From an uncultured Alphaproteobacteria bacterium (lineage in GTDB: Bacteria > Pseudomonadota > Alphaproteobacteria > Rhizobiales > Methyloligellaceae): a stretch of DNA of 64,000 bases. Below are positions 3,957-64,000 of the stretch, piece after piece (within the stretch, counting starts at the first letter, position 1; every line of letters begins with the position of its first letter). The translations under genes and the position numbers were made by a program. Location of the stretch: assembly GCA_963839245.1 (NCBI GenBank), contig CAWIUJ010000002.1, positions 125,795 to 189,794 on the forward strand. Direction: 5' to 3'. The notes under the pieces are model-generated. The model did no database searches. It saw only the letters and a program-made list of their open reading frames with translations, and was not told the origin of the DNA.

Positions 3957-4651
3957 GGCTCGGAGGCATCCTCAACCGCAATCGTGGTTTTTCCAGACAG
4001 AATCATGCTCACGATTCGCGTGGTCCCGAGCCGACCCAGCGCCGGCAGATATTTCAGATATTCGGTCATCAACAGCTTAGTGGTGCCGGGATATACCCAC
4101 CACCGCTCAAGATGCACGTTATTGTCGATCACCGAATAGGGGATCAAGTCGACGCCCGGCATGACGCGGCCAAGCTCGGCGAGCGCGCGGGGCATGTGAT
4201 AGTTCGAGGTCACCACGATGATCGACTGATAGTGATGCTGCGCCACCCACTGGCTGGTCTCGGTGGCGTTGTCGATGGTGTTGCGCGCTTCCTTGTCGAT
4301 ATCGACGCAGCAGGCGAAGAGCTGGTCGCCTTGGCTCGCAAGTTCCTTCAGCGCCTCCGTCGAGGTGGTACGATTGACCCCGGTGATCAACAGCCGCTTC
4401 GCCTTCTGATGGGTGAGCAGCTTCATGGCCTCGTCGATGCGGGCCGGGCCGCCGGTCAAGACGGTAATACCGTCGGCCGTGTGCTCAGGCTCCGGCTGCT
4501 CGCGCGCGATGAAGCTGGTAAAGATCAGGAAGCCGATGGCGAGGAGAGCGAACAGCAGCAGCAGCGAATCGAAGATGAGCTGTAGCCCGCCCACGAAGAC
4601 GCGAAATCGGCTCGGCGATTTCGGCTCTTCCTCGCTCACGTCTCGCTCCAA
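3953..4651 (-). CDS. YdcF/DUF218 family protein
   Basis: ADGITVLTGG, RLLITGV, ARNTIDNA, IVVTSNYHMPRA motifs; N-terminal TM segment. Confidence 0.88.
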   Translation of the reverse strand: MERDVSEEEPKSPSRFRVFVGGLQLIFDSLLLLFALLAIGFLIFTSFIAREQPEPEHTADGITVLTGGPARIDEAMKLLTHQKAKRLLITGVNRTTSTEALKELASQGDQLFACCVDIDKEARNTIDNATETSQWVAQHHYQSIIVVTSNYHMPRALAELGRVMPGVDLIPYSVIDNNVHLERWWVYPGTTKLLMTEYLKYLPALGRLGTTRIVSMILSGKTTIAVEDASEP

Positions 4652-4736
4652 CGCTGCCCGACGGGCGCCAGAATAGGCGCAATGAACGCAATAGGAAATT
4701 GGCTTCGGCGGGGCAAAAGCGTCTGCATTTCGCGGG

Positions 4737-5720
4737 TCAGGCGTAGGATTTGAGCACGCGGATGACGCCGAGCCGGGAGGTGAGCATGCAGAGTGAGGCG
4801 ACGACGAAGACCACCAGCACGCAAAGCAGATAGCCCGGAAAATCGAGCTCGCCGGAGCCGACCAGCCGGCTCATTTCGGTGGCGGTGAGGCTGCCGCCCC
4901 CCAGCGTGTGCGTCACCACCGGCAAAAGAAGGAACGTGATGGCCGCAGCGATTGCGCCGACCAGGCCGGCGCGGACGCCAAGCCCAAGGAAATGGCGCTC
5001 GAATTCGCGGCTGATGAAGCGCTCATTGGCGCCCACGTAATGCAGCACCTCGATGATCTCGCGGTTTGAGGCCATGGCGCTGCGGGTGGCGGAGACGATA
5101 ACGGCGATGGTCGCCGCCGCAACGAGCGCCAGCACGGCAAGGCCGCCAAGCGCGGCGGACCGGGTCAATGTGCGGATCTCGGCCTGCCAGCGGCGGTGAT
5201 CGTCGAGTGTGACGCCCTCGAAGTTCTGCGTCAGCGCCTCGCTGATGGTTTTGATGTCGGGCGGGTTGGAGCGGTCGATCTCCACGGCGATAAGGCGGGG
5301 GATGGGCAAGGCCGAGAGCGCGTCGCTTTTGCCGAGCCAGGGCTCGAGCAGCTTGGCGGAATCCTCGGCGGTCAGCGGCTTCACCCGGGTGATGCCGGCC
5401 TGCTTGGCCAGGAACAGGGACACGAGCGTCATCTTCTTCTCGATATCGGCGGTGTTGACCGGATCGAGCTCGACGGTGATCTCGCTCGCAATGTCGTTGA
5501 CCCAGGCATTGGCCGACTGATTGACCATATACACCGCGCCGGCGGTGAGGCAGGCGAGGAAGGACATGATGGCGATCACCACGGTCAAGGCATTGCCGGC
5601 GATGGAGGCCGAGGGAACGATTTGCGCGGTCTGGGCTTGAAAGCGAGCGGGCAACAGCCCGGCGAGAAGACTGCGCCAAGGGTAGTCACGAATGCCGGCG
5701 ATGAAGCGCGGGGGGTTCAT
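4737..5720 (-). CDS. ftsX: Cell division ABC transporter permease
   Basis: VIAIMSFLACL TM, LLEPWLG, LPIPRLIAVE, LDDHRRW, IIEVLHYVGANERFI; overlaps ftsE stop. Confidence 0.9.
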   Translation of the reverse strand: MNPPRFIAGIRDYPWRSLLAGLLPARFQAQTAQIVPSASIAGNALTVVIAIMSFLACLTAGAVYMVNQSANAWVNDIASEITVELDPVNTADIEKKMTLVSLFLAKQAGITRVKPLTAEDSAKLLEPWLGKSDALSALPIPRLIAVEIDRSNPPDIKTISEALTQNFEGVTLDDHRRWQAEIRTLTRSAALGGLAVLALVAAATIAVIVSATRSAMASNREIIEVLHYVGANERFISREFERHFLGLGVRAGLVGAIAAAITFLLLPVVTHTLGGGSLTATEMSRLVGSGELDFPGYLLCVLVVFVVASLCMLTSRLGVIRVLKSYA

Positions 5721-55062: not shown

Positions 55063-55178
55063 CGGCGGGCGGGCGCGCATCTCAATCGAGCTTCTATACG
55101 GCTCGAACTCGTCCTGAATGACGGTCGCCGTCGACCGGAGGCAGTCCATCACCATCGTCATAGTCCTCGCCAAGTAGG

Positions 55179-55192
55179 ATTGGTGCCCCAGG
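55179..55192. repeat. att-like 14-bp direct repeat of the tRNA-Leu 3' end
   Basis: ATTGGTGCCCCAGG at 55179-55192 is identical to 61175-61188, which overlaps the tRNA CCA end. Confidence 0.85.
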
Positions 55193-55483
55193 GGCGAGCC
55201 TCAATCATCAAAACTCAATTTTTTTGTCGCAGTTGCTCTGACAACACAGATGCTTCGGCGAGTGATTTTTTCATGTTTCTCTAGCGAATACAGACTCCTG
55301 GAGGAGTGGATTGCTTCTCAGCTTGTGGCGCGAGTCCGGCGTTCTTCGGCTATCCGCGAATTCACGAAGAAAGGCGCTTACCTTCGGACCAAAAGAATGC
55401 ATAGTTTAAAGCGGGAGGGAGAACCAAAGGGGTTACGCTTCCTAAAAGGATTACGCCGAACGTCCTAAACGCGGAGGGACGCC

Positions 55484-56560
55484 ATGACGCGTTTGGTCGC
55501 CTCTCTTGTGCGCGTTTTATCTCTCATACTACGCATCATGTTTCCTTGCTCGCTCATGTTGCTTGCGAGCTGCACCAAACCGACGGTATTTCCACGATAT
55601 TTGACCGTCGCCGATGTCATCAACAATGTCAAATGCGAGCTCTACCTAGCAATCCTGGAAACCCCGGGTTCGACTTGGCTCGGCGCCTGGGCCGCAAAAT
55701 TTTCGGTTGTTCTTCAGGTGAACTCGGGAGACTGGCGGTACCGGAGACCTGACGTTGGTAGTGCCGTATACGCATCCAGGCATCGGCCTATTTACCATTG
55801 TGGCGGGCGGGGCTGTGACGAAGAATGGCCAGAGCCGGATGACTTTCAACTTTGACGCCGAGCCGAACCTAAACCTCTTCATGTCGAAGGATCAGTGCGG
55901 CTATCTGCGGCAGCTCAATGGTCGCAACAATCTAGCGGGGGAGACAGGGCTGCGTCTTTGGTTCGGAAACTTGATTGAAGGGATCAACCAAGCGCGCATC
56001 GTGAAACAATCGACGGGGTTCATCTACTCTATCGAGTTTATAACGACGTTGGAAGGACACATTAGGCCGTCCTTCCAAACGACCTATCCGTCCCGGAAAA
56101 TATTTTCAGGGGCTTTCGCTGCAAATCATAGTCGCAAGGACGACAACACGTTGACGGTGACTTTCGCCCCGTATGCGAAGCCCGTGCCCTTTGCTGCTAC
56201 GGACCTTGGGAAGGCCTTAGCTAAAATAGATGCAGACCTGGCCAAGGCGCAGGAGAAAAGGAAGGGCGCCAAAACTGAGTTAACAGCAAAAAATAGCGCC
56301 CTTGAGACTGCGGCAAAGGCTCCTCCTGGCGCGGCTTTTCCTCAGCCGCTTTCAGATCTTAAAGCTAGCGCGGAAGCTGCGCAGGCTCAGTTCAATAAGG
56401 CTGACGAAGAGGTGAGAAGCCTGGAAAGTGAACGAGAAGCCTTAAGCGCTTCTGCTAAGGCGGCTTCTAAGGCCGCCCGCGAAGCCGCGGCTGCTTCCAC
56501 CGACAATCAGCTAAACAACCTGATTTGCTCGATGCCATCCGTAATATTCCGCGCCTGTAG
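55484..56560 (+). pseudogene. Putative lipoprotein of unknown function with beta-rich core and coiled-coil tail; two frameshifts
   Basis: Lipobox-like LLASC; VADVINNVKCEL...WAAKFSVVLQVN; shift near 55725 to ETGGTGDLTLVVPY...; one extra T at about 56524 gives the ending QLNNLILLDAIRNIPRL-stop. Confidence 0.6.
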
Positions 56561-56666
56561 CCATCAGTTCCCCTTTTTAGGTATTCTCGACGCGTCCGAT
56601 GCCCAGCGCACCTTCAGCTGGACGGTTTGGTTGCGCAGGAAGGTTGCTACATCCATATAGTCTCCG

Positions 56667-57047
56667 ATGGGACACGTTTTTTTCAGCTTAGGTTTGGCTG
56701 GGGCCATTTGCGGATGGGGGTGGTCCAGCCTCGCCCACGCGCAGGCTGTGACCGCCGGTCTGCAAGACTCTGGGGACCCGCCTCACGTGCTCGTCGCCCA
56801 TAATGGGGCTTGTAAGGAAAGAGCGCTGGCGGCCGGACTGAGAGCGCGCAACGCGGAGGAACGCGCCATCCTTGCCGACCAAGGGGCTGACGCGGTCGAG
56901 CCTTCGGTCATAGCAGTAAAAGTCAAGAGAAGGGGGACGAGACGGTCTTCCGACCCGACTTCGGGACATCGGGTCAACGAAGAAACGAGGCGGCAGCTTG
57001 ATGAGTTGCTATTGCTGGATGCCTTGCGGCGTGCTGGCCAACGGTAG
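56667..57047 (+). CDS. Small exported hypothetical protein
   Basis: Hydrophobic N-terminus ending AHA; C-terminus RRQLDELLLLDALRRAGQR. Confidence 0.5.
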   Translation: MGHVFFSLGLAGAICGWGWSSLAHAQAVTAGLQDSGDPPHVLVAHNGACKERALAAGLRARNAEERAILADQGADAVEPSVIAVKVKRRGTRRSSDPTSGHRVNEETRRQLDELLLLDALRRAGQR

Positions 57048-57243
57048 GGCGCGCTTGCAACAGGGCCTAACTGGCGTCCAGTTACTGGCGAGCGTTGGCC
57101 GTTTGCAAACTGCCTTCGTGTCCTTCGCACAGCAAGTGTCCCCCATGCAACGCTTGCAAGCGGGGGCAGCGACGGCAATTGGGACGAAACTAGGGCTATT
57201 GATAAGCATGCGCGCTTCATTGATTTACTCCCTGAGTGCGCGC

Positions 57244-58759
57244 TCATTGCTCCGGGGCGATGCCCGGATGCCCAATCTCCAATGTCACTTTATCATCAAT
57301 GGCCGCGTTATCCGTGTCGGACACCGACAAGGTAATGCTCGAAGATGCGTACCCCGCCGCGCTCAACGCTTCGACGACAGCTGCCTGTCGCATTAATAAC
57401 CGCAGCGGGTCTCCAGGCCGGTCTCGATGTCCCTGATAGCGATGGCCGATGACCTTGAACTTTGCCGTAAGGGGCTCCCTCTTAAGGCCTGCGATCTCGC
57501 CTTTACTTTCGTTATCCAAGCGTTCGACACCAGGCTGCAGATCCGGCATGAAACCAAGGTCGACCTCCCGCGATGTCCACGTATTTTTCTTAAGCTTTGC
57601 TTTCCGATTAACCCAATCTCCGCGTTTCTCGATTGACGGTTTGGTTTTGATCTTATCCGAAGTCGATGGTGGCAATTGTATCTCTTGTATCTCTTCCATC
57701 GTATTATCAGAAGTCAATGCTGGCAATTGTATCGGTTCCACCGGCCAATGCTCTATCTGTTCTGTTGCTGCCTGGTAGAAATATCCTCCCCCATATGCCA
57801 ATTTCAGTTTTCGTAATAAGTCTATCCCTTGTTCGGGGTTTTTAGCTTTAGCGGACATTGCATTCTGGAATATTCTTTCCTCAACATTGAACTCCCTTTG
57901 GGTAGGAACGAAGATGAACTCATGTCCAGGCATGCTGGTTATAGTTGGTGCTTGGCCATCCGGTAAGCTGGCTTGGATGCTCTGCATCTTCACGGTGATT
58001 TCCGCGAAGAAATCGCTCTGTCGTATGTCCGGGGCGATGCTCGAGACGAAGGCCCCAGCAAATGGTCCTACGTCTTGTCCATTGATGGTATCGCCGGCCT
58101 TTTTACCGTTGAGAGTTGCGAAGGCGAGAATTACCCTGCTGTCGTCCAGAGGAGGAAACGCTGGAACTTCCCCTAACTTTTCAAGCGGCTTTGGCCAGGC
58201 ATCATCGCGGCAAGCATCAACGATGATAAAGTTGAGAGGGTTATTCGCATAGGAAAATGCGTCATAAAGCAATCGAAGGGGGATCAGTTCTTCTTCGAAG
58301 TCCCTTTCGTATCGAATTAGGTTGTCGTGCGGAACAAGGTACATTTGACGGTTGTGCTGAAGGCCGTGCCCTGAAAAATACACGAGTCCAACGCCACCTA
58401 CTTTGCGGAGTGTTTCGGCAAGATCGTAGATGGCTTTCTTTATGCTCTGACGATCGGTCATCCACCGCTCGCCCTTTTTGAAGTCGGGGGCTCTGGATCG
58501 ACCAGCTCGTTCACAATAAAGCTAGCGTCCTCCAACGACTTGCTGACAGAATCCGCGTCGTGTGTTGGACTGGTCAAAGACAAGAAGCCATTCCCTTCTT
58601 CGAGGTTCTAAACCCCGATCACCAAGGCGTTCCTCGGCGCTAAAGATATCCAGGGGATCCACGATAAATCTCGACTTTCGGAAGCTGTGGGTTTTCGGCG
58701 GCCGCCGATCTCACCAGAAGTAAACTCAAACCCAGCAGCAACGTGCCCAACGGCCTCAT
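57244..58759 (-). pseudogene. Exported caspase-like (peptidase C14) protease with long C-terminal extension; 5' part disrupted
   Basis: YFSGHG (His) and IIVDACR (Cys) dyad in ORF 57244-58461. Upstream fragments MRPLGTLLLGLSLLLVRSAAA, RNALVIGV, LTSPTHDADSVSKSL are joined across a shift at about 58640, a TAG at 58608-58610 and a G-run shift at 58486-58490. Confidence 0.8.
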
Positions 58760-58856
58760 AGCATAGCGCCTCGAAAATGACGTTCCCACTGCACTTAGTT
58801 TGTGCCATTATGTCCAATTATTTGGTGGTGCGGCAATTATTTTTGCAATCGGAGGG

Positions 58857-59807
58857 ATGCCAATGTCCGTAAAAGGCCTTATGGCACTGGCAGGGTTCGC
58901 GGTGGGACTGACGTTCTCCGAACTTACCGCTGCGCATGATCTCATGGGTCTCGTAGTTGAGGCAAGGGACAGTGCATCGCCCGAATTGGCAGCTGCATTG
59001 GCAAATGTCCCAGCGGCCGATGTGAATACCAAGTCGGTGCTGGACAATTTGCGGCTTTGGCCTGTTCCGCGAAAGCTGACGATATGTTTTCACGGCGGTT
59101 CCGCGGCGCTGCGCAAGCGCGTTACAGAAGCCATGCAAAAGCTCTGGCCAATCAGTGATCTTTCGCAAGGTCGCTTAGGTTACGACGGATCAAGTTTCAG
59201 CAATCCGCCGGATTGCAACACGCCGGCTACAGCGGACATACGGCTAGCCTTCGATGGGCAAGGCGGCTACTGGTCCTATGTCGGGGTGGAAAGTCGACTT
59301 CACGACCCGAGCATGAACCTTCAGCTTACCGAAAATTCGCCTGACACTGACTTCAACGAGAAAGTTGGTCATGAAATGGGGCATGCTCTGGGGCTACAAC
59401 ACGAGCATCAGAGCCCTCTCGCTAAGTGCAATTGGGATTTTGACTGGATCTGGAGCAATTATAAGTGGGAAAGCAAAGAAGATATGCACTTCAATCTGGA
59501 TAGGCTACAGGATTCTATTGTTAATGGCCAGCACGCTTACACTTTCTCCTCCTATGATAAAAGCTCATTGATGCACTATTCATTCCCGGAGCAGGCATTC
59601 CAAGACAAATCGAACGATGCCTGCTTTATCCCTCAAAACCTTGTTCCCTCGGGCCAGGACAAGAATGCGATCCAACTTGCCTACGGCCCCGATATTTTGG
59701 CCAGACAAAGCCAAACCAAAAGCCTTTCTCCGGAGCTTTCCAAGCCAACGCGGGCGCGACAAAACGCAGGCGCTCATCCAACAAAAGATCAAATGCTTGG
59801 TGAGTAG
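58857..59807 (+). CDS. Exported astacin-like metzincin metalloprotease
   Basis: HEMGHALGLQHEH zinc motif, SLMHY Met-turn, GYWSYVG, N-terminal signal-like segment; GGAGGG RBS. Confidence 0.88.
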   Translation: MPMSVKGLMALAGFAVGLTFSELTAAHDLMGLVVEARDSASPELAAALANVPAADVNTKSVLDNLRLWPVPRKLTICFHGGSAALRKRVTEAMQKLWPISDLSQGRLGYDGSSFSNPPDCNTPATADIRLAFDGQGGYWSYVGVESRLHDPSMNLQLTENSPDTDFNEKVGHEMGHALGLQHEHQSPLAKCNWDFDWIWSNYKWESKEDMHFNLDRLQDSIVNGQHAYTFSSYDKSSLMHYSFPEQAFQDKSNDACFIPQNLVPSGQDKNAIQLAYGPDILARQSQTKSLSPELSKPTRARQNAGAHPTKDQMLGE

Positions 59808-60156
59808 CTGCGGATGTAGTCCTTCTAACCGTCTGCTTAAGAACGTTGTGACGGACTGGACCCCCGGCCGGCGCCGAGATTAGACGCCAATCATTCCAGC
59901 GATCGAGGCTCCTGATGCTCGCGAACCGGACTCGTCGTGCTCGCTCGGAGGGTCGCCCCGGCTGCTACCGTCTTGCCCCAGGGCGTCGACCGCTGGAATC
60001 CTGCATCCACGCGGTCTTCGACCTGTCCCCGATCGCATGTGCCAGAGCCATTTCGGAATCATCGCGTGGGTAATCGGTCAGCTCGCTGGCCCAATCGCGG
60101 AGGTCGAGCGAATTGGCTGCGCTGGTTGAAATACAGTCTCGAAGATTGACGGCAGC

Positions 60157-60399
60157 CTACTTCGTAGGCGCCTCGACTTTCGCGGCTGGCGCGGCAGCCT
60201 GCGCCTCTCCCTGGTCGCTCTTCTGGCTTGCGGCCGGCGCGGCCTTAACGCTAGCCATGACGCTATCACGGACTGCAGGGTCGGCTGCTGATGGGATTGC
60301 CATCCCCCGATCGTTAGTAGTTGGCGCAGTCTGCGCGATAGCGACCGTGGCGGCGGCCGATAGAGCAGCAGCGACCACACACACCGTTAGCTTCGTCAT
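60157..60399 (-). CDS. Small exported Ala-rich protein
   Basis: GGAGAG RBS; MTKLTVCVVAAALSAAATVAIA-QTAP signal peptide. Confidence 0.65.
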   Translation of the reverse strand: MTKLTVCVVAAALSAAATVAIAQTAPTTNDRGMAIPSAADPAVRDSVMASVKAAPAASQKSDQGEAQAAAPAAKVEAPTK

Positions 60400-60555
60400 C
60401 TTTCTCTCCATCGATAAGTTACCACGAGGCATCCAGTCTCATTGGCGCGCCGATAAACAGGTCCAAGGTCGCAACAACGCGATCTACGCCTGTCTAGCAA
60501 GCGCACGTTCATAGGTGGGCGTAGGCGGGTCCACCCGACAAGCGCTTTCCACATT

Positions 60556-60891
60556 TCAGCACTGGCCGGGGAGGCGCCAGACGCCGCCACCGCAGTATTG
60601 GTACCCGTTCGGCACACAATGATAATCAGCGGTTCCATAAGTCCCGTTGGGGCAGCAGAAAACGTAGCCGCTGGACCAGCAATTATTTCCCGCCGTGCAA
60701 TAGTGGCCATCGATGCAGCATTGCTCACCGGGCTGAATACACCCCCCACCACACATCAAAAACGCAGGGCATTGCTGGGCGCGTGTCGTGCTGGCCAAGC
60801 CTATGCTTAACGTCGCCAATGTCGCGAAAACGCAGAGGCTACTCAGCGCAAGTCGGAATGGCAGGAATTTTTTGAGTTCACGCTCAACCAT
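60556..60891 (-). CDS. Small exported Cys-rich protein
   Basis: Signal peptide ending TRA; mature part with about a dozen Cys including CC pairs (CIQPGEQCC, CWSSGYVFCCP). Confidence 0.65.
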   Translation of the reverse strand: MVERELKKFLPFRLALSSLCVFATLATLSIGLASTTRAQQCPAFLMCGGGCIQPGEQCCIDGHYCTAGNNCWSSGYVFCCPNGTYGTADYHCVPNGYQYCGGGVWRLPGQC

Positions 60892-61176
60892 GGAAGCCTC
60901 CCATCGTGGCCAAGGCAAGGCCCGGTCAGCGGGAACCAATGATTGAAAAAGACGAGCGCCAGGCTCCGCCACTACATCTAACATATTCCTGCACGGCGAT
61001 CCATTAGTCCTCTTTCTTCACCTAGCTGAGATCGAGACCCGCACAACCTCGGGCGGCCCTTTGCGCCTTCCAGGCTTCCGGTCGCGGATAGCGGAGCGGT
61101 GCTTCCATGGTGCTTCCGTGACAGGAGACAAGCCTATTTAGGAGAAGCGTATCATGCTCTAAACATCTGATTCCAT

Positions 61177-61262
61177 TGGTGCCCCAGGCCGGACTCGAAC
61201 CAGCACGTCCTTGCGAACAACAGATTTTGAGTCTGCCGCGTCTACCATTCCGCCACTGGGGC
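61177..61262 (-). tRNA. tRNA-Leu (anticodon CAA)
   Basis: GCCCCAG acceptor stem, GGCGGAATGGTAGACGC D-arm, GCAGA-CTCAAAA-TCTGT anticodon arm, long variable arm, GGTTCGAGTCC T-loop, encoded CCA. Confidence 0.96.
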
Positions 61263-61309
61263 ACGGGGCGGAAGATGGGATAAGCGAAAGGCGCGGTCAA
61301 CCTGTTGCC

Positions 61310-62260
61310 TCAGCCCTCCTCGTGCAAGCGCGCCGCGAGCCAATCGCCAACTCGTCGGCGTGCCCGGCCATGCGCTTTCCGCAGCACGCGCCCCATATTC
61401 ATGAAGCCATGGATGGTGCCTTCCGAGCAGTCGTACTCGACCGGCACGCCGGCCGCCGCTAGCATCTCGGCATATTCCGCTCCCTCGTCGCGTAAGGGAT
61501 CGTGTCCGGCGGTGATGATCAGTGCCGGCGGCAGCCCCGAATAGTCCTTGTAGAGCGAGGGGATCGCGCGCGGGTCGGCGATCGGCCAGGCGAGGCCGAA
61601 ATAATGCCAGAAAAACCAATGGATCATGTCGTGCGGGATGGGAAAATGGTGGGCCAGTTCCTTGCGCGATGGCAGCCGGCCGCGCAGGTCGAGTGCCGGG
61701 TAGATCATAGCCTGAGCGCGCGCCGGTGCGGCGAGCCGGCCCTTGGTCTCATGCAGCGCGACGGCGGCCAATCCGCCGCCCGCGCTGTCGCCGACGACGG
61801 CGATCTTCTGCGGATCGAGGCCGAGGCTCGCGGTCTCGTGCGACAGCCACATCAGCGCCGCGACGGTGTCCTCGACCGCTGCGGGGAACGGATGCTCCGG
61901 CGCGAGCCGATAGTCGAGCGAGAACACGGTCGCCCGCGTGTCGTGGCATAGCGTCCGGCACAACACATCGTGGGTCTCGAGGTCGCCGAGAACGCAACCG
62001 CCGCCATGGACGAATAGGATGGAAGCTTCGGCCGCGCGACCTCGATCGACGGGAACGTATTTCCGCAGCCGCATCGGCCCGGCGGGGCCCGGCACGGCGA
62101 GGTCGCTCGCCTCGCCGATGTCAGGCGGCGCGATCTCGGCCTTGGCCAGAGTGCGGCGATATTCCTCGCGCGCGGCGTCGGGCGAGAGAGTCCAGAGCGG
62201 TGTCGCCGTCGCTGACGATGCCCAATACAGCAGCGCTTCTGTTTCGCGGTCGAGCTTCAA
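61310..62260 (-). CDS. Hormone-sensitive-lipase-family alpha/beta hydrolase (Aes-like esterase)
   Basis: HGGG oxyanion motif, DYRLAPEHPFPAA, GDSAGG nucleophile, HDPLRDEG, IHGF. Confidence 0.93.
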   Translation of the reverse strand: MKLDRETEALLYWASSATATPLWTLSPDAAREEYRRTLAKAEIAPPDIGEASDLAVPGPAGPMRLRKYVPVDRGRAAEASILFVHGGGCVLGDLETHDVLCRTLCHDTRATVFSLDYRLAPEHPFPAAVEDTVAALMWLSHETASLGLDPQKIAVVGDSAGGGLAAVALHETKGRLAAPARAQAMIYPALDLRGRLPSRKELAHHFPIPHDMIHWFFWHYFGLAWPIADPRAIPSLYKDYSGLPPALIITAGHDPLRDEGAEYAEMLAAAGVPVEYDCSEGTIHGFMNMGRVLRKAHGRARRRVGDWLAARLHEEG

Positions 62261-62419
62261 ACTTCAGTGCTCCCGGCACCTGACCATTGCAACGGCGCCC
62301 GATCAATTCCGAGGTGAAACCCCGGTCAGGCCCCCGGGTAACGAAAGAGGGGGAGCCTATGCCAAAGCACCGGCTTCGACGCAATGGACAAGGCAAGCCC
62401 TCCCCGTTAAGCAAGCTGG

Positions 62420-63001
62420 ATGCTGAAAGGGCTCTACGACCGGGTGATCGAGCTGTCCAAGGGGCGCCATGCGCTTACAGTGCTGGCCGCAGTGGCTTTT
62501 GCCGAGAGCTCCTTCTTTCCCGTCCCGCCCGACATCGTGCTCGTGCCTATGGCGCTCGCCAATCCAAGCAAGGCGAGGCTCTACGCGCTCGTCTGCAGCA
62601 TCGCCTCGGTGCTCGGCGGCCTTCTCGGCTACGCCATTGGCGCGCTGCTCTATGACACGGTCGGCCATTGGCTGATCTCGGCCTATGGCTATGGCGAAGG
62701 CGTCGAGGCGTTCCGCGAGGCCTATGCTAAATGGGGCGCCTGGATCATCCTGATCAAAGGCATGACGCCGATCCCCTACAAGATCGTGACCATCGCCTCG
62801 GGCTTCGCCGGCTACAATCTGCTCTATTTCTTCGTGCTGTCCTGCATCACCCGCGGCGCGCGCTTCTTCCTGGAGGCCGAGCTGTTGCGTATCTATGGCG
62901 AGCCGATCCGCGAGTTCATCGAGCGCCGCCTCACCCTCGTCACCACCGGCTTCCTGGCGGCGATCGTGGGCGGCTTCCTCATCGCCAAATATGCGTTCTG
63001 A
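62420..63001 (+). CDS. YqaA/DedA (VTT) family membrane protein
   Basis: AFAESSFFPVPPD, SVLGGLLGY, TPIPYKIVTIASG, RGARFF. Confidence 0.9.
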   Translation: MLKGLYDRVIELSKGRHALTVLAAVAFAESSFFPVPPDIVLVPMALANPSKARLYALVCSIASVLGGLLGYAIGALLYDTVGHWLISAYGYGEGVEAFREAYAKWGAWIILIKGMTPIPYKIVTIASGFAGYNLLYFFVLSCITRGARFFLEAELLRIYGEPIREFIERRLTLVTTGFLAAIVGGFLIAKYAF

Positions 63002-63002
63002 C

Positions 63003-63518
63003 ATGACGGCCGTATCCGCGAGACTTATGGACCAGCTGGCCGGCAAGCTCATGCTCGTCGCCGCGGTCCTCTTTTCGGTCGCCTTCGCGACGATCCTCAC
63101 GGCGCATGTCTTCGAGCGCTATGGCGGCTATCTGCCCTGCCATCTCTGCCTGCAGGAGCGCTATGCCTATTATTTCGCGGTGCCGGCAAGCGTGATTGCC
63201 TTTTTCACCGCCCGCGCCGAGTCCTTCAGCCTCACCCGCATCCTGCTGGCGGCAATCGCACTCGCCTTGGTCTTGAATGCCGGGCTCGGCATCTATCACT
63301 CCGGCGTCGAATGGAAATGGTGGGCCGGACCGACCGAATGTTCCGGCGGCTCGGTCCTGAGTTTCGGCCCGGAAGGCGTCGACATCGAGAATGCCAAGGT
63401 CGTCGCCTGCGATCGGGCCGCGTGGCGCTTCCTCGGACTGTCCTTTGCCGGATGGAACGCGGTGGTGTCGGGTCTTCTCGCGGCGATCGCGGCCTACGGC
63501 GCGGCGCTCCGCCGCTGA
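63003..63518 (+). CDS. dsbB: Disulfide bond formation protein B family
   Basis: YLPCHLCLQER CxxC, YHSGVEWKWWAGPTEC, VVACD...FLGLSFAGWN. Confidence 0.88.
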   Translation: MTAVSARLMDQLAGKLMLVAAVLFSVAFATILTAHVFERYGGYLPCHLCLQERYAYYFAVPASVIAFFTARAESFSLTRILLAAIALALVLNAGLGIYHSGVEWKWWAGPTECSGGSVLSFGPEGVDIENAKVVACDRAAWRFLGLSFAGWNAVVSGLLAAIAAYGAALRR

Positions 63519-63575
63519 ACCCCCTCTACCCGCCGAGGAGAGCGAGACGCGTCCTCCTCAGGGTGAGACGAACCT

Positions 63576-63620
63576 CCTCATCCTGAGGAGCGGTCGAAGA
63601 CCGCGTCTCGAAGGATGAGG
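63576..63620. repeat. Rhizobiales-type REP-like element
   Basis: CCTCATCCTGAGGAGCGGTCGAAGACCGCGTCTCGAAGGATGAGG between convergent genes; same family as 33914-34066. Confidence 0.75.
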
Positions 63621-63633
63621 CCACGCGCCAAGC

Positions 63634-64000
63634 TCACGGCTCGAGCTCGGTATCCCAGTAGAGATAATCGAGCCAGCTCTCGTGCAGATAATTCGGCGGG
63701 AACAGCCGGCCGTTGCGGTGAAGCTCGAACACCGTCGGGCGATAGGGCTTCTGCGCCGGGAACATCTTGGCCTCGGCCGGCAGCTTGCCGCCTTTAGTCA
63801 GATTGCAGGGCGCGCAGGCCGCGACCACATTGTCCCAGCGCGTCAGGCCGCCGCGCGAGCGCGGCACGAGATGATCGAAGGTGAGGTCCTCGCCGTCGCC
63901 GCAATATTGGCAGGAGAAGCGGTCGCGCAAGAATACGTTGAACCGGGTGAAGGCGGGATAGAGCGCGGGGCGGATATAGGTCTTGAGCGAGACCACGCTC
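63634..64000 (-). CDS. HNH endonuclease (5' end outside window)
   Basis: FTRFNVFLRDRFSCQYCG...LTFDHLVPRSRGG...NVVAACAPCN. Confidence 0.92.
   Translation of the reverse strand, partial: SVVSLKTYIRPALYPAFTRFNVFLRDRFSCQYCGDGEDLTFDHLVPRSRGGLTRWDNVVAACAPCNLTKGGKLPAEAKMFPAQKPYRPTVFELHRNGRLFPPNYLHESWLDYLYWDTELEP

Follow-up and report, generated by a model that had tools for sequence, protein, structure and literature searches.

A 6-kb islet beside a tRNA-Leu gene was analysed in a 64,000-nucleotide stretch of contig CAWIUJ010000002.1 from an uncultured alphaproteobacterium (the whole of that stretch is called the window below). Two genes in the middle of the islet encode an exported caspase-like protease of family C14 and an exported pro-astacin of family M12A, and together they make up a real, conserved and apparently undescribed two-gene unit. 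No description of an exported C14-M12A pair was found in the literature. The islet as a whole is probably an old, immobilised mosaic of exported-protein cassettes, in which the C14-astacin pair would operate as a zymogen-activation cascade. The linkage of the two genes is observed directly; the direction of cleavage, its site and the final substrate are what we infer.

A dual-protease module had been proposed in a first-pass annotation of the window, with co-occurrence elsewhere as the check, and for the two proteases the proposal was borne out. The C14 gene adjoins the astacin gene in 12 of 12 independent loci examined, namely the window with L017 (a 6075-bp ENA metagenome contig covering window 55111-61177), L016, L018/19, L020/21, L022/23/26, L024/25, L027, L028, L055, L056, L057 and a contig from the Joint Genome Institute (JGI). 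This twelfth locus is a 3249-bp contig that is taken to carry both P0010 and P0102, the two proteins having in common both the JGI source and the length of the longest contig. Single-protein scans of the genome contigs with the caspase and with the astacin were empty, and an alignment-based search was needed to detect them. Besides the window, the two genes are divergent in L016 and L018/19 (55% and 65% identity), in L027 and in L057, and they are co-directional, with gaps of 18-120 bp, in L020/21, L022/23 (the same locus as L026), L024/25, L055 and L056. Adjacency was also recorded in L028 and in the more distant L031, L040 and L042. Within the close subfamily the pair is present on every contig of sufficient size, and both proteases have signal peptides in all loci. 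The hosts, as given by the labels of metagenome-assembled genomes (MAGs), include Hyphomicrobiales, a betaproteobacterium and a 'delta proteobacterium', in addition to metagenome contigs. At least about 97 sequence clusters make up the astacin subfamily, most of them derived from environmental metagenomes and MAGs. In Candidatus Cybelea (L029:533-3157) the astacin is preceded not by a C14 protein but by a lipoprotein with a Peptidase_C11 clostripain domain (E 7e-48). Clostripain is Arg-specific, and from the sequences it looks as if one clan-CD cysteine protease has here been swapped for another. The neighbours of the pair are often integrases, excisionase-like helix-turn-helix proteins, primase-like genes, PARIS-like AriAB, LmuB-like ATPases and methyltransferases, while in L024 the pair occupies an ordinary chromosomal site with RlpA and PBP5 genes around it.

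The two proteases had been described as a C14 caspase-like enzyme and an astacin-like enzyme transcribed divergently across about 100 bp, and Pfam identified both Peptidase_C14 and Astacin. The Peptidase_C14 domain (PF00656) was found in 57244-58461(-) with an E value of 3.5e-9 and 37.1 bits (cut-off 21.4), and an intact relative, P0099, scored 61.5 bits against the same cut-off. The catalytic motifs SGHG (His) and DACRD (Cys) are invariant in the family alignment, as is required of a C14 protein. Intact relatives of the caspase are P0098 (98%) and P0099 (84%). The top fold match of the predicted structure was the MALT1 paracaspase (E 9e-12), and MALT1 is an Arg-specific enzyme. An Asp lies two residues before the catalytic Cys, the position at which Asp-specific caspases have Gln. 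The C-terminal domain is present in all caspases of the family and an SH3_3 domain in many of them. An OmpA-like identity for this tail was considered and rejected: PF00691 found three other genes of the genome and not the caspase, hhalign against the genome's own OmpA domains gave 0.3%, and there was no match among PDB sequences, the resemblance being confined to the predicted beta-alpha-beta-alpha-beta-beta order. In the spacer between the genes, the ribosome-binding region of the astacin is common to L016/L018. A promoter and terminator scan and an alignment of the spacers gave nothing above chance, and no conserved operator was detected by them.

The Astacin domain (PF01400) was detected in 58800-59807(+) with 24.6 bits, just over the cut-off of 22.5. 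The zinc site HEMGHALGLQHE conforms to HExxHxxGxxHE, and its residues H170, E171, H174, H180 and E181 do not vary among 20 members of the family; neither do S235, M237, H238 and Y239 of the Met-turn SLMHY (SxMHY). In Foldseek the astacin model matched myroilysin (E 2e-11, 26-29% identity), BMP1 (6e-5) and meprins (4e-4). The structured domain of the model is confident from about residue 66 and is preceded by a low-confidence pro-region. The pro-segment, of about 33 residues, begins with an invariant HD..G (within a conserved AHD..G) and ends with T-[KR], 8 residues before LW, and the predicted maturation site in the window's protein is T-K↓S-V. This site was placed by comparison with crayfish astacin, in which LW presumably lies 8 residues after the mature N-terminus. 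A basic residue stands at the predicted P1 position in 19 of the 20 aligned family members, and in more distant members as well. An NCBIfam assignment of the protein as 'AbsR1 beta-glucuronidase' was discarded, as the score of 54.9 bits against a cut-off of 650 reflects merely shared metzincin similarity.

The following course of events would account for the islet. It would have entered at the 3' end of tRNA-Leu(CAA) by means of a tyrosine integrase that is now about 32 codons long, and it corresponds to the segment 55179-61188. At least three cassettes could be distinguished within it: cassette A, a lipoprotein and a small partner with the same C-terminal motif; cassette B, the divergent C14 and pro-astacin pair followed by the gene for a small Cys-rich peptide; and cassette C, two orphan secreted peptides. 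Cassette B alone constitutes the dual-protease module, two genes inherited together that would move among Proteobacteria on integrative and variable islands. Both proteases would be exported by Sec, with the astacin kept latent by a pro-segment of about 33 residues that blocks the cleft. The C14 enzyme would then cut pro-astacin after the conserved Lys or Arg, 8 residues before the LW motif, and the new N-terminus would be free to slot in beside the family-specific Glu and pair with it, as happens in other astacins. Activation of astacins is known to involve removal of the pro-segment and burial of the new N-terminus against the family Glu (PMC9848320), and PMC6426788 describes orthocaspases as cleaving after basic residues. 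The mature astacin may act on envelope or extracellular proteins, a candidate being the variable lipoprotein or exported protein that is encoded just upstream in many loci. The copy in this genome may be partly inactivated.

The islet had also been described as a tRNA-Leu island, an AT-richer segment of about 6 kb bounded by 14-bp direct repeats, and this description proved correct in both respects. The repeat ATTGGTGCCCCAGG (14 bp) has exactly two copies in the whole 64-kb window, at 55179 and 61175. When up to one mismatch was allowed there were still two sites, and two or more matches were seen in 0 of 100 shuffles. The tRNA-Leu(CAA) was placed at 61177-61262 on the minus strand by both ARAGORN and Rfam, so the right repeat consists of the last 12 tRNA bases, including CCA, and two more. 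The guanine plus cytosine (GC) content is 0.62-0.70 in the flanks, 0.46-0.55 at 55250-59750 and 0.56-0.62 over the final 1.4 kb up to the tRNA. At the DNA level, nothing in 40 relatives, 24 of them from the same genus, matched 55193-61174, while both flanks and the tRNA did match. Moreover, the astacin-family profile gave a strong match in only 1 of 301 genomes sampled from the order, the present one, and in 0 of the 8 other genomes sampled from the genus. The island is real and lineage-specific, with repeats that include the tRNA 3' end lying around DNA of atypical composition that the relatives lack. Rfam detected only the tRNA on it. A clean empty site was not found among the relatives; the interval between the SulP and tRNA genes in G001 is occupied by 2.2 kb of other genes, for a GlcG-like protein and two small lipoproteins, with normal GC.

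Table 1. Features of the islet and its borders, in order along the window.
Feature	Position	Strand	Details
Distal 14-bp direct repeat, att (attachment site) remnant	55179..55192		Identical to 61175-61188; 117 bp downstream of the SulP-family transporter gene
Lipoprotein gene	55484..56560	+	About 359 residues read through; lipobox LLASC; frameshifts near 55728 and 56526
Small exported partner protein	56667..57047	+	126 residues; two-gene cassette with the lipoprotein
Small Cys-rich cationic secreted peptide	57009..57220	-	About 70 residues; 24-35 nt downstream of the caspase stop; seventh gene
Exported caspase-like C14 protease	57244..58762	-	Signal peptide, p20-like domain, helical middle region, C-terminal domain of about 100 residues
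Divergent spacer between the protease genes	58763..58862		About 100 bp; GGAGG 7 nt before the astacin ATG at 58863
Exported pro-astacin, M12A	58863..59807	+	314 residues; signal peptide, pro-segment of about 33 residues, zinc site, Met-turn
Tyrosine-integrase C-terminal remnant	60007..60102	-	About 32 codons; matches residues 334-365 of a 400-residue integrase
Ala-rich secreted peptide, orphan	60157..60432	-	Open reading frame of 91 residues; no family match
Cys-rich secreted protein, orphan	60556..60892	-	111 residues from the Met after GGGAGG; 12 Cys in the mature part; no family match
tRNA-Leu(CAA) with proximal direct repeat at its 3' end	61175..61262	-	tRNA 61177-61262; repeat 61175-61188

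The island had been called integrase-less. It has no working integrase, but the remnant of a tyrosine integrase had been missed: the minus strand at 60007-60102, between the astacin gene and the Ala-rich open reading frame (ORF), encodes LRDWASELTDYPRDDSEMALAHAIGDRSKTAW. In tblastn a 400-residue integrase from one plasmid record aligned through residues 334-365 only (E 6e-9 for the window and 3e-11 for L017). When the L017 counterpart of the stub was compared by tblastn with plasmid records, 88 of them matched (best E 7e-9), and the annotated features under the matches listed were site-specific or tyrosine integrases. The stub has a Trp at the position of the catalytic Tyr, and the other approximately 330 codons are gone. 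Pfam did not detect the fragment at 60007-60102. No integrase similarity was found elsewhere in the window, where the integrases of L020/L022 and of the genome itself had no match. It was considered whether the 1 kb between the stub and the tRNA might be a frameshifted full integrase, the Ala-rich and Cys-rich ORFs being artefacts, and this was ruled out by the tblastn coverage of residues 334-365 only. As the stub survives and some 330 codons have been lost, the island was probably inserted by the integrase and later immobilised, and with the integrase reduced to about 32 codons the element is unable to excise by itself. The stub is oriented as the tRNA is, and the Ala-rich and Cys-rich genes fill the space of the missing codons with DNA of higher GC; this tRNA-proximal kilobase may be a separate, later piece. 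The island is similar to tRNA-targeting islands with P4-type tyrosine integrases in its insertion at a tRNA 3' end, its short direct repeats, its atypical GC, its strain-specific cargo and the orientation of its integrase gene like the tRNA, and it differs from them in being only 6 kb long with an integrase worn down to about 32 codons.

Lesions in the reading frames had been noted in the window's copy, and they are indeed present, in greater number than had been implied. Judged against intact relatives, there are two in the lipoprotein gene, three in the caspase gene, three in the astacin gene and one in the gene for the small Cys-rich peptide. The caspase gene has 1-bp frameshifts near 58487 and 58644 and a TAG nonsense codon at 58608-58610, a substitution for which L017 has Ser. 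In the astacin gene, three nearby 1-bp differences at 59750-59782 scramble the conserved C-terminal helix, and a 1-bp departure from the L017 sequence, at about 57217, upsets the start region of the small Cys-rich gene. Of the lipoprotein frameshifts, the one near 55728 occurs in both the window and L017, the one near 56526 in the window only. The window and L017 are approximately 99% identical outside 55250-56250; in all, there are 39 gap openings between them, almost every one of a single base pair, and 191 mismatches, 130 of which fall in 55250-56250. L017 is intact at the N-terminus of the caspase, at the C-termini of the astacin and the lipoprotein and at the start of the small peptide; its own breaks are in the caspase C-terminus and the astacin middle. 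The intact versions, whether from the window or from L017, agree with the family consensus, which the L017 sequence restores for the astacin C-terminus. The long-read-style contigs L022 and L023, which belong to the same ENA series, differ by 117 mismatches and 38 gaps in 21 kb, and the short-read contigs L020 and L021, which represent one element, by 35 mismatches and no gap. The GenBank titles of related MAGs contain 'MFD' isolate names, which we take to denote a long-read soil survey. Judging from these comparisons, most of the lesions look like long-read assembly errors, and a caution follows for other islands in long-read MAGs, which can mimic clusters of pseudogenes.

It could be that the window's copy is nevertheless a silent relic, with real lesions that have accumulated by decay since the loss of the integrase, while the module is functional in other bacteria; the chance of this falls only a little short of even. 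At least eight lesions are found in 6 kb, whereas the core genes in the 58 kb of flanking DNA in the window are long intact ORFs, and the frameshift near 55728 is seen in the independent contig L017 too, despite an identity of approximately 87% in that part. The stop in the caspase gene is a substitution and not an indel, the ratio of nonsynonymous to synonymous polymorphism (pN/pS) between the window and L017 copies is about 0.5-0.6, and the integrase is a stub with its catalytic Tyr replaced. Note, however, that outside the shared frameshift and the diverged left end each assembly has its own private set of lesions, almost all of them 1-bp indels, with an indel:substitution ratio of approximately 1:2.4 in DNA that is approximately 99% identical. 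In addition, what is broken in one assembly is whole in the other and matches the family consensus, and similar indel noise is found in the long-read-style L022/L023 and none in the short-read L020/L021. For the lipoprotein and the caspase taken together, the chance that at least one is truly inactive in this strain is about one half.

The zymogen-activation cascade proposed for the protease pair has several points against it. Since the caspase, the lipoprotein, the astacin C-terminus and the small peptide all carry lesions, the module may be without effect in this strain. The direction of the cascade is drawn from sequences and models rather than from experiment or a structure of the complex, and the putative Arg/Lys cleavage specificity of this C14 branch derives from the motif and from the rank of the fold match. 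A basic P1 residue is permissive and not specific for a C14 partner, because it is ancestral in animal astacins, where it is cut by trypsin or furin. The animal FXGD Asp-switch is absent from the pro-segment, the model of which is of low confidence. Finally, the pairwise distances of astacins and caspases over the 12 loci were strongly correlated (Mantel r 0.935, p 2e-4), but this figure is inflated by two near-duplicate locus pairs. As for the assignment to M12A itself, the XXRXDRD motif after the family Glu is likewise absent, the sequence after HEH being QSPLAKCNWDFDW. Both the FXGD aspartate switch and XXRXDRD are features of animal astacins (PMC9848320). Their absence denotes a bacterial branch and not exclusion from M12A, because myroilysin also lacks the Asp switch.

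A functional pair could also work in another way, although this is rather unlikely: the astacin could mature the C14 enzyme, or both could act in parallel on a common substrate, for example a food protein. Adjacency and co-evolution indicate joint working and not its order. The SH3_3 or C-terminal domain of the caspase could be regulatory, and either the C-terminal domain or the p20-p10 linker could be a target of the astacin. A digestive role would also be in keeping with PMC6331793, in which bacterial astacins of the myroilysin type appear as abundant secreted digestive enzymes. The near-invariant basic residue at the astacin maturation site (19/20) fits better with a basic-specific convertase, and the replacement of C14 by C11 in Cybelea retains beside the astacin a clan-CD protease that is presumably Arg-specific. 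Cleavage of pro-astacin by the C14 enzyme is the preferred order here.

The remaining genes of the islet were compared with other loci in the same manner. Six ORFs had been listed, all with export signals, and signal or lipobox peptides were indeed seen by eye in all six; the listing had overlooked a seventh gene, at 57009-57220(-). The lipoprotein has a beta-rich N-terminal domain and an Ala/Glu/Lys-rich helical tail, and intact members of its family have 354-418 residues, for example the homologues P0127, P0130 and P0131 with 354-367. It shares with its small partner (window 56490-57047) the C-terminal motif QL..L.LLDA[IL]R, which may be a sorting or assembly signal. Pfam, NCBIfam and PADLOC gave nothing for the lipoprotein, the partner, the Ala-rich or the Cys-rich protein. 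A homologue of the partner lies directly downstream of a lipoprotein homologue in L050, L064, L067 and L068, and the lipoprotein homologue is found alone in L047-49. The cassette occurs without any protease of either family in L047-49, L050, L063-68 and one JGI contig. Co-occurrence of the lipoprotein family with C14 and M12 proteases had been proposed as a check, and in general it did not hold: apart from the window, the cassette adjoins the protease pair in L057 alone, and there as a remote homologue, with a 257-residue lipoprotein (hhalign probability 95% to the family) and a small ORF in the same order as in the window. Lipoproteins or exported proteins are encoded just upstream of the astacin in L020, L024, L028 and L056, and less clearly so in L055, where the ORF has 147 residues. 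BLAST and hhalign showed no relationship of these upstream proteins to the lipoprotein of the window or, where compared, to one another; as remote homologues of the window's lipoprotein, those of L020, L024, L028, L055 and L056 were rejected at hhalign probabilities of at most 1%.

All six or seven genes had originally been read as one extracytoplasmic system, a cascade in which the proteases process the lipoprotein and the small peptides of the same island, in the service of envelope defence or antagonism. That all the products look exported is compatible with this, as is L057, which has the same order of a remote lipoprotein homologue, a small ORF, a caspase(-) and an astacin(+). Co-directional loci usually have a lipoprotein or exported protein before the astacin, and a precedent for a metzincin on a mobile element that cleaves the neighbouring lipoprotein is provided by Mtz-Tim of Listeria (PMC8235301). 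The single system is nonetheless improbable. The lipoprotein cassette is free of proteases in the other loci where it is found, the lipoproteins upstream of the pair elsewhere are not related to the window's by BLAST or hhalign, and the Ala-rich and Cys-rich ORFs, present only in the window and L017 among the loci examined, lie beyond the integrase stub in DNA of different GC. The mosaic of cassettes is preferred, and the case illustrates how a small tRNA islet may be understood as several independent two-gene cassettes in a row instead of one system.

By analogy, the pair could also be pictured as a mobile extracytoplasmic cascade used in conflict, in which a triggered Arg/Lys-specific convertase would unleash the astacin, which in turn would cleave the variable, lineage-specific neighbour lipoprotein, much as Tim is cleaved in Listeria, and so remodel or breach the cell wall. 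This is an improbable elaboration; if true, the pair would be an envelope-side counterpart of the cytoplasmic caspase-effector modules, and its riding in defence and integrase islands would be explained. An anti-phage or abortive-infection role for the pair, as a caspase plus latent effector acting from the envelope, is very improbable: in other genomes it adjoins PARIS-like AriAB, Lamassu LmuB-like ATPases, restriction-modification genes and integrases in variable islands, and the unleashing of adjacent zymogen effectors by caspase-like proteases is an established defence theme (PMC12642450), but both proteins are exported, no sensor domain is present, no PADLOC model covers the astacin, the generic match to the caspase is weak, and co-location in islands is weak evidence beside the ordinary chromosomal context of L024. 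The envelope defence suggested at first received no direct support, PADLOC-DB v2 having matched neither the astacin nor the lipoprotein, the partner or the peptides, and the caspase only through a weak generic hit of 27.9 bits.

The astacin resembles myroilysin (Myroides; PDB 5CZW, 5GWD, 5ZJK) and flavastacin in being a secreted bacterial astacin zymogen with HExxHxxGxxHE and SxMHY. It differs from myroilysin in that its gene is always beside that of a clan-CD protease, and we know of no dedicated partner protease for myroilysin or flavastacin. Myroilysin is kept latent by a cysteine switch (PMC9848320), whereas the pro-segment here has an invariant HD..G and no Cys switch. A 2023 review places astacins in selected bacterial taxa only, pathogens or colonisers of animal hosts, and suggests an animal origin (PMC9848320). 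The caspase is like orthocaspases, metacaspases and the MALT1 paracaspase in its p20-like fold, its His-Cys dyad and the Asp that precedes the Cys by two residues; unlike them, it bears a Sec signal peptide together with a C-terminal domain of about 100 residues that is specific to the family, with SH3_3 added in some members. To our knowledge, the prokaryotic enzymes of this group characterised so far, and the paracaspase too, are cytoplasmic.

The pair shares with antiviral modules of a caspase and a latent effector (gasdermin, EACC1, MBL or hydrolase; PMC12642450) a two-gene logic and a frequent location in variable islands and, on the proposed cascade, would share the site-specific activation of a neighbouring zymogen. 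Those modules are intracellular and sensor-linked (PMC12642450), while in the present case the two partners are exported and the effector is a protease in its own right; no sensor was recognised and PADLOC was negative. In Listeria monocytogenes, Mtz-Tim consists of a secreted metzincin and a TIMP-like lipoprotein on a phage remnant, the metzincin cleaving the lipoprotein with effects on the cell wall (PMC8235301). The likeness is to a secreted metzincin on a mobile element beside a lipoprotein, as in L020-25, L056 and L057; it is one of gene arrangement, and Mtz-Tim has no caspase partner and a Gram-positive host. A dedicated clan-CD partner would offer a simple two-component model of zymogen activation outside the bacterial cytoplasm, and it might give the numerous exported 'caspase family proteins' of Proteobacteria their first role in physiology.

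Several further observations were made on the cassettes. In the region 55250-56250, which takes in the upstream region and the N-terminal half of the lipoprotein, the window is approximately 87% identical to L017, the remainder being at approximately 99%; this pattern suggests either that an allele was replaced by recombination or that the evolution of the lipoprotein is relaxed or diversifying. With the C-terminal portion of the lipoprotein-family profile, weak matches (E about 5e-5) were also obtained at two other loci (L066:1093-1485; L047:9022-9591), in ORFs that lie where the lipoprotein gene ends or immediately beyond. In L050 a gene for a Trypsin_2 serine protease (4007-4933) lies approximately 0.8 kb downstream of the lipoprotein-partner cassette, and this may be another association of lipoprotein and protease, or chance. 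The small Cys-rich peptide has a paralogue with 63% amino acid identity on contig C6 of the same genome, at C6:22209-22478 (L052:1209-1478), between the gene of a Crp/Fnr-like regulator and a HipA-like gene. The gaps in the alignment with this paralogue downstream of the window's frame break are of 9 and 3 nt, and the L017 copy of the peptide has an intact signal peptide. The cationic Cys-rich exported peptides are a small undescribed family.

Around the closest relatives of the protease pair, in L018/L019 (1-21584), there is a large cluster of mostly exported-type enzyme genes. These encode a tyrosinase, a CHAT protease with a TPR protein, an LCAT-like lipase, VanY/muramidase, an S8 subtilase and an animal-haem peroxidase; a signal peptide is visible on the LCAT-like lipase, and an IS240-family transposase adjoins the caspase. 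In L027 (3738-7810), from an uncultured Hyphomicrobiales MAG, the divergent pair is located between an HNH endonuclease gene and a DsbB-like gene. Comparison with window 61177-63996 showed that this HNH endonuclease has 77% amino acid identity to the one in the window. The L027 pair lies approximately 0.8 kb from the same tRNA-Leu(CAA), on the 5' side of the tRNA, so that the module sits close to this tRNA in both genomes, but on opposite sides of it. An esterase gene by the tRNA (window 61310-62260; L051, L053, L054) shifts its position among members of the genus: in the window it is flanked by the tRNA and dedA, in G007/G006/G008/G022 it stands on the far side of the tRNA, and in G004/G014/G018 it is on a separate contig. 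The tRNA-Leu locus is a rearrangement hot spot.

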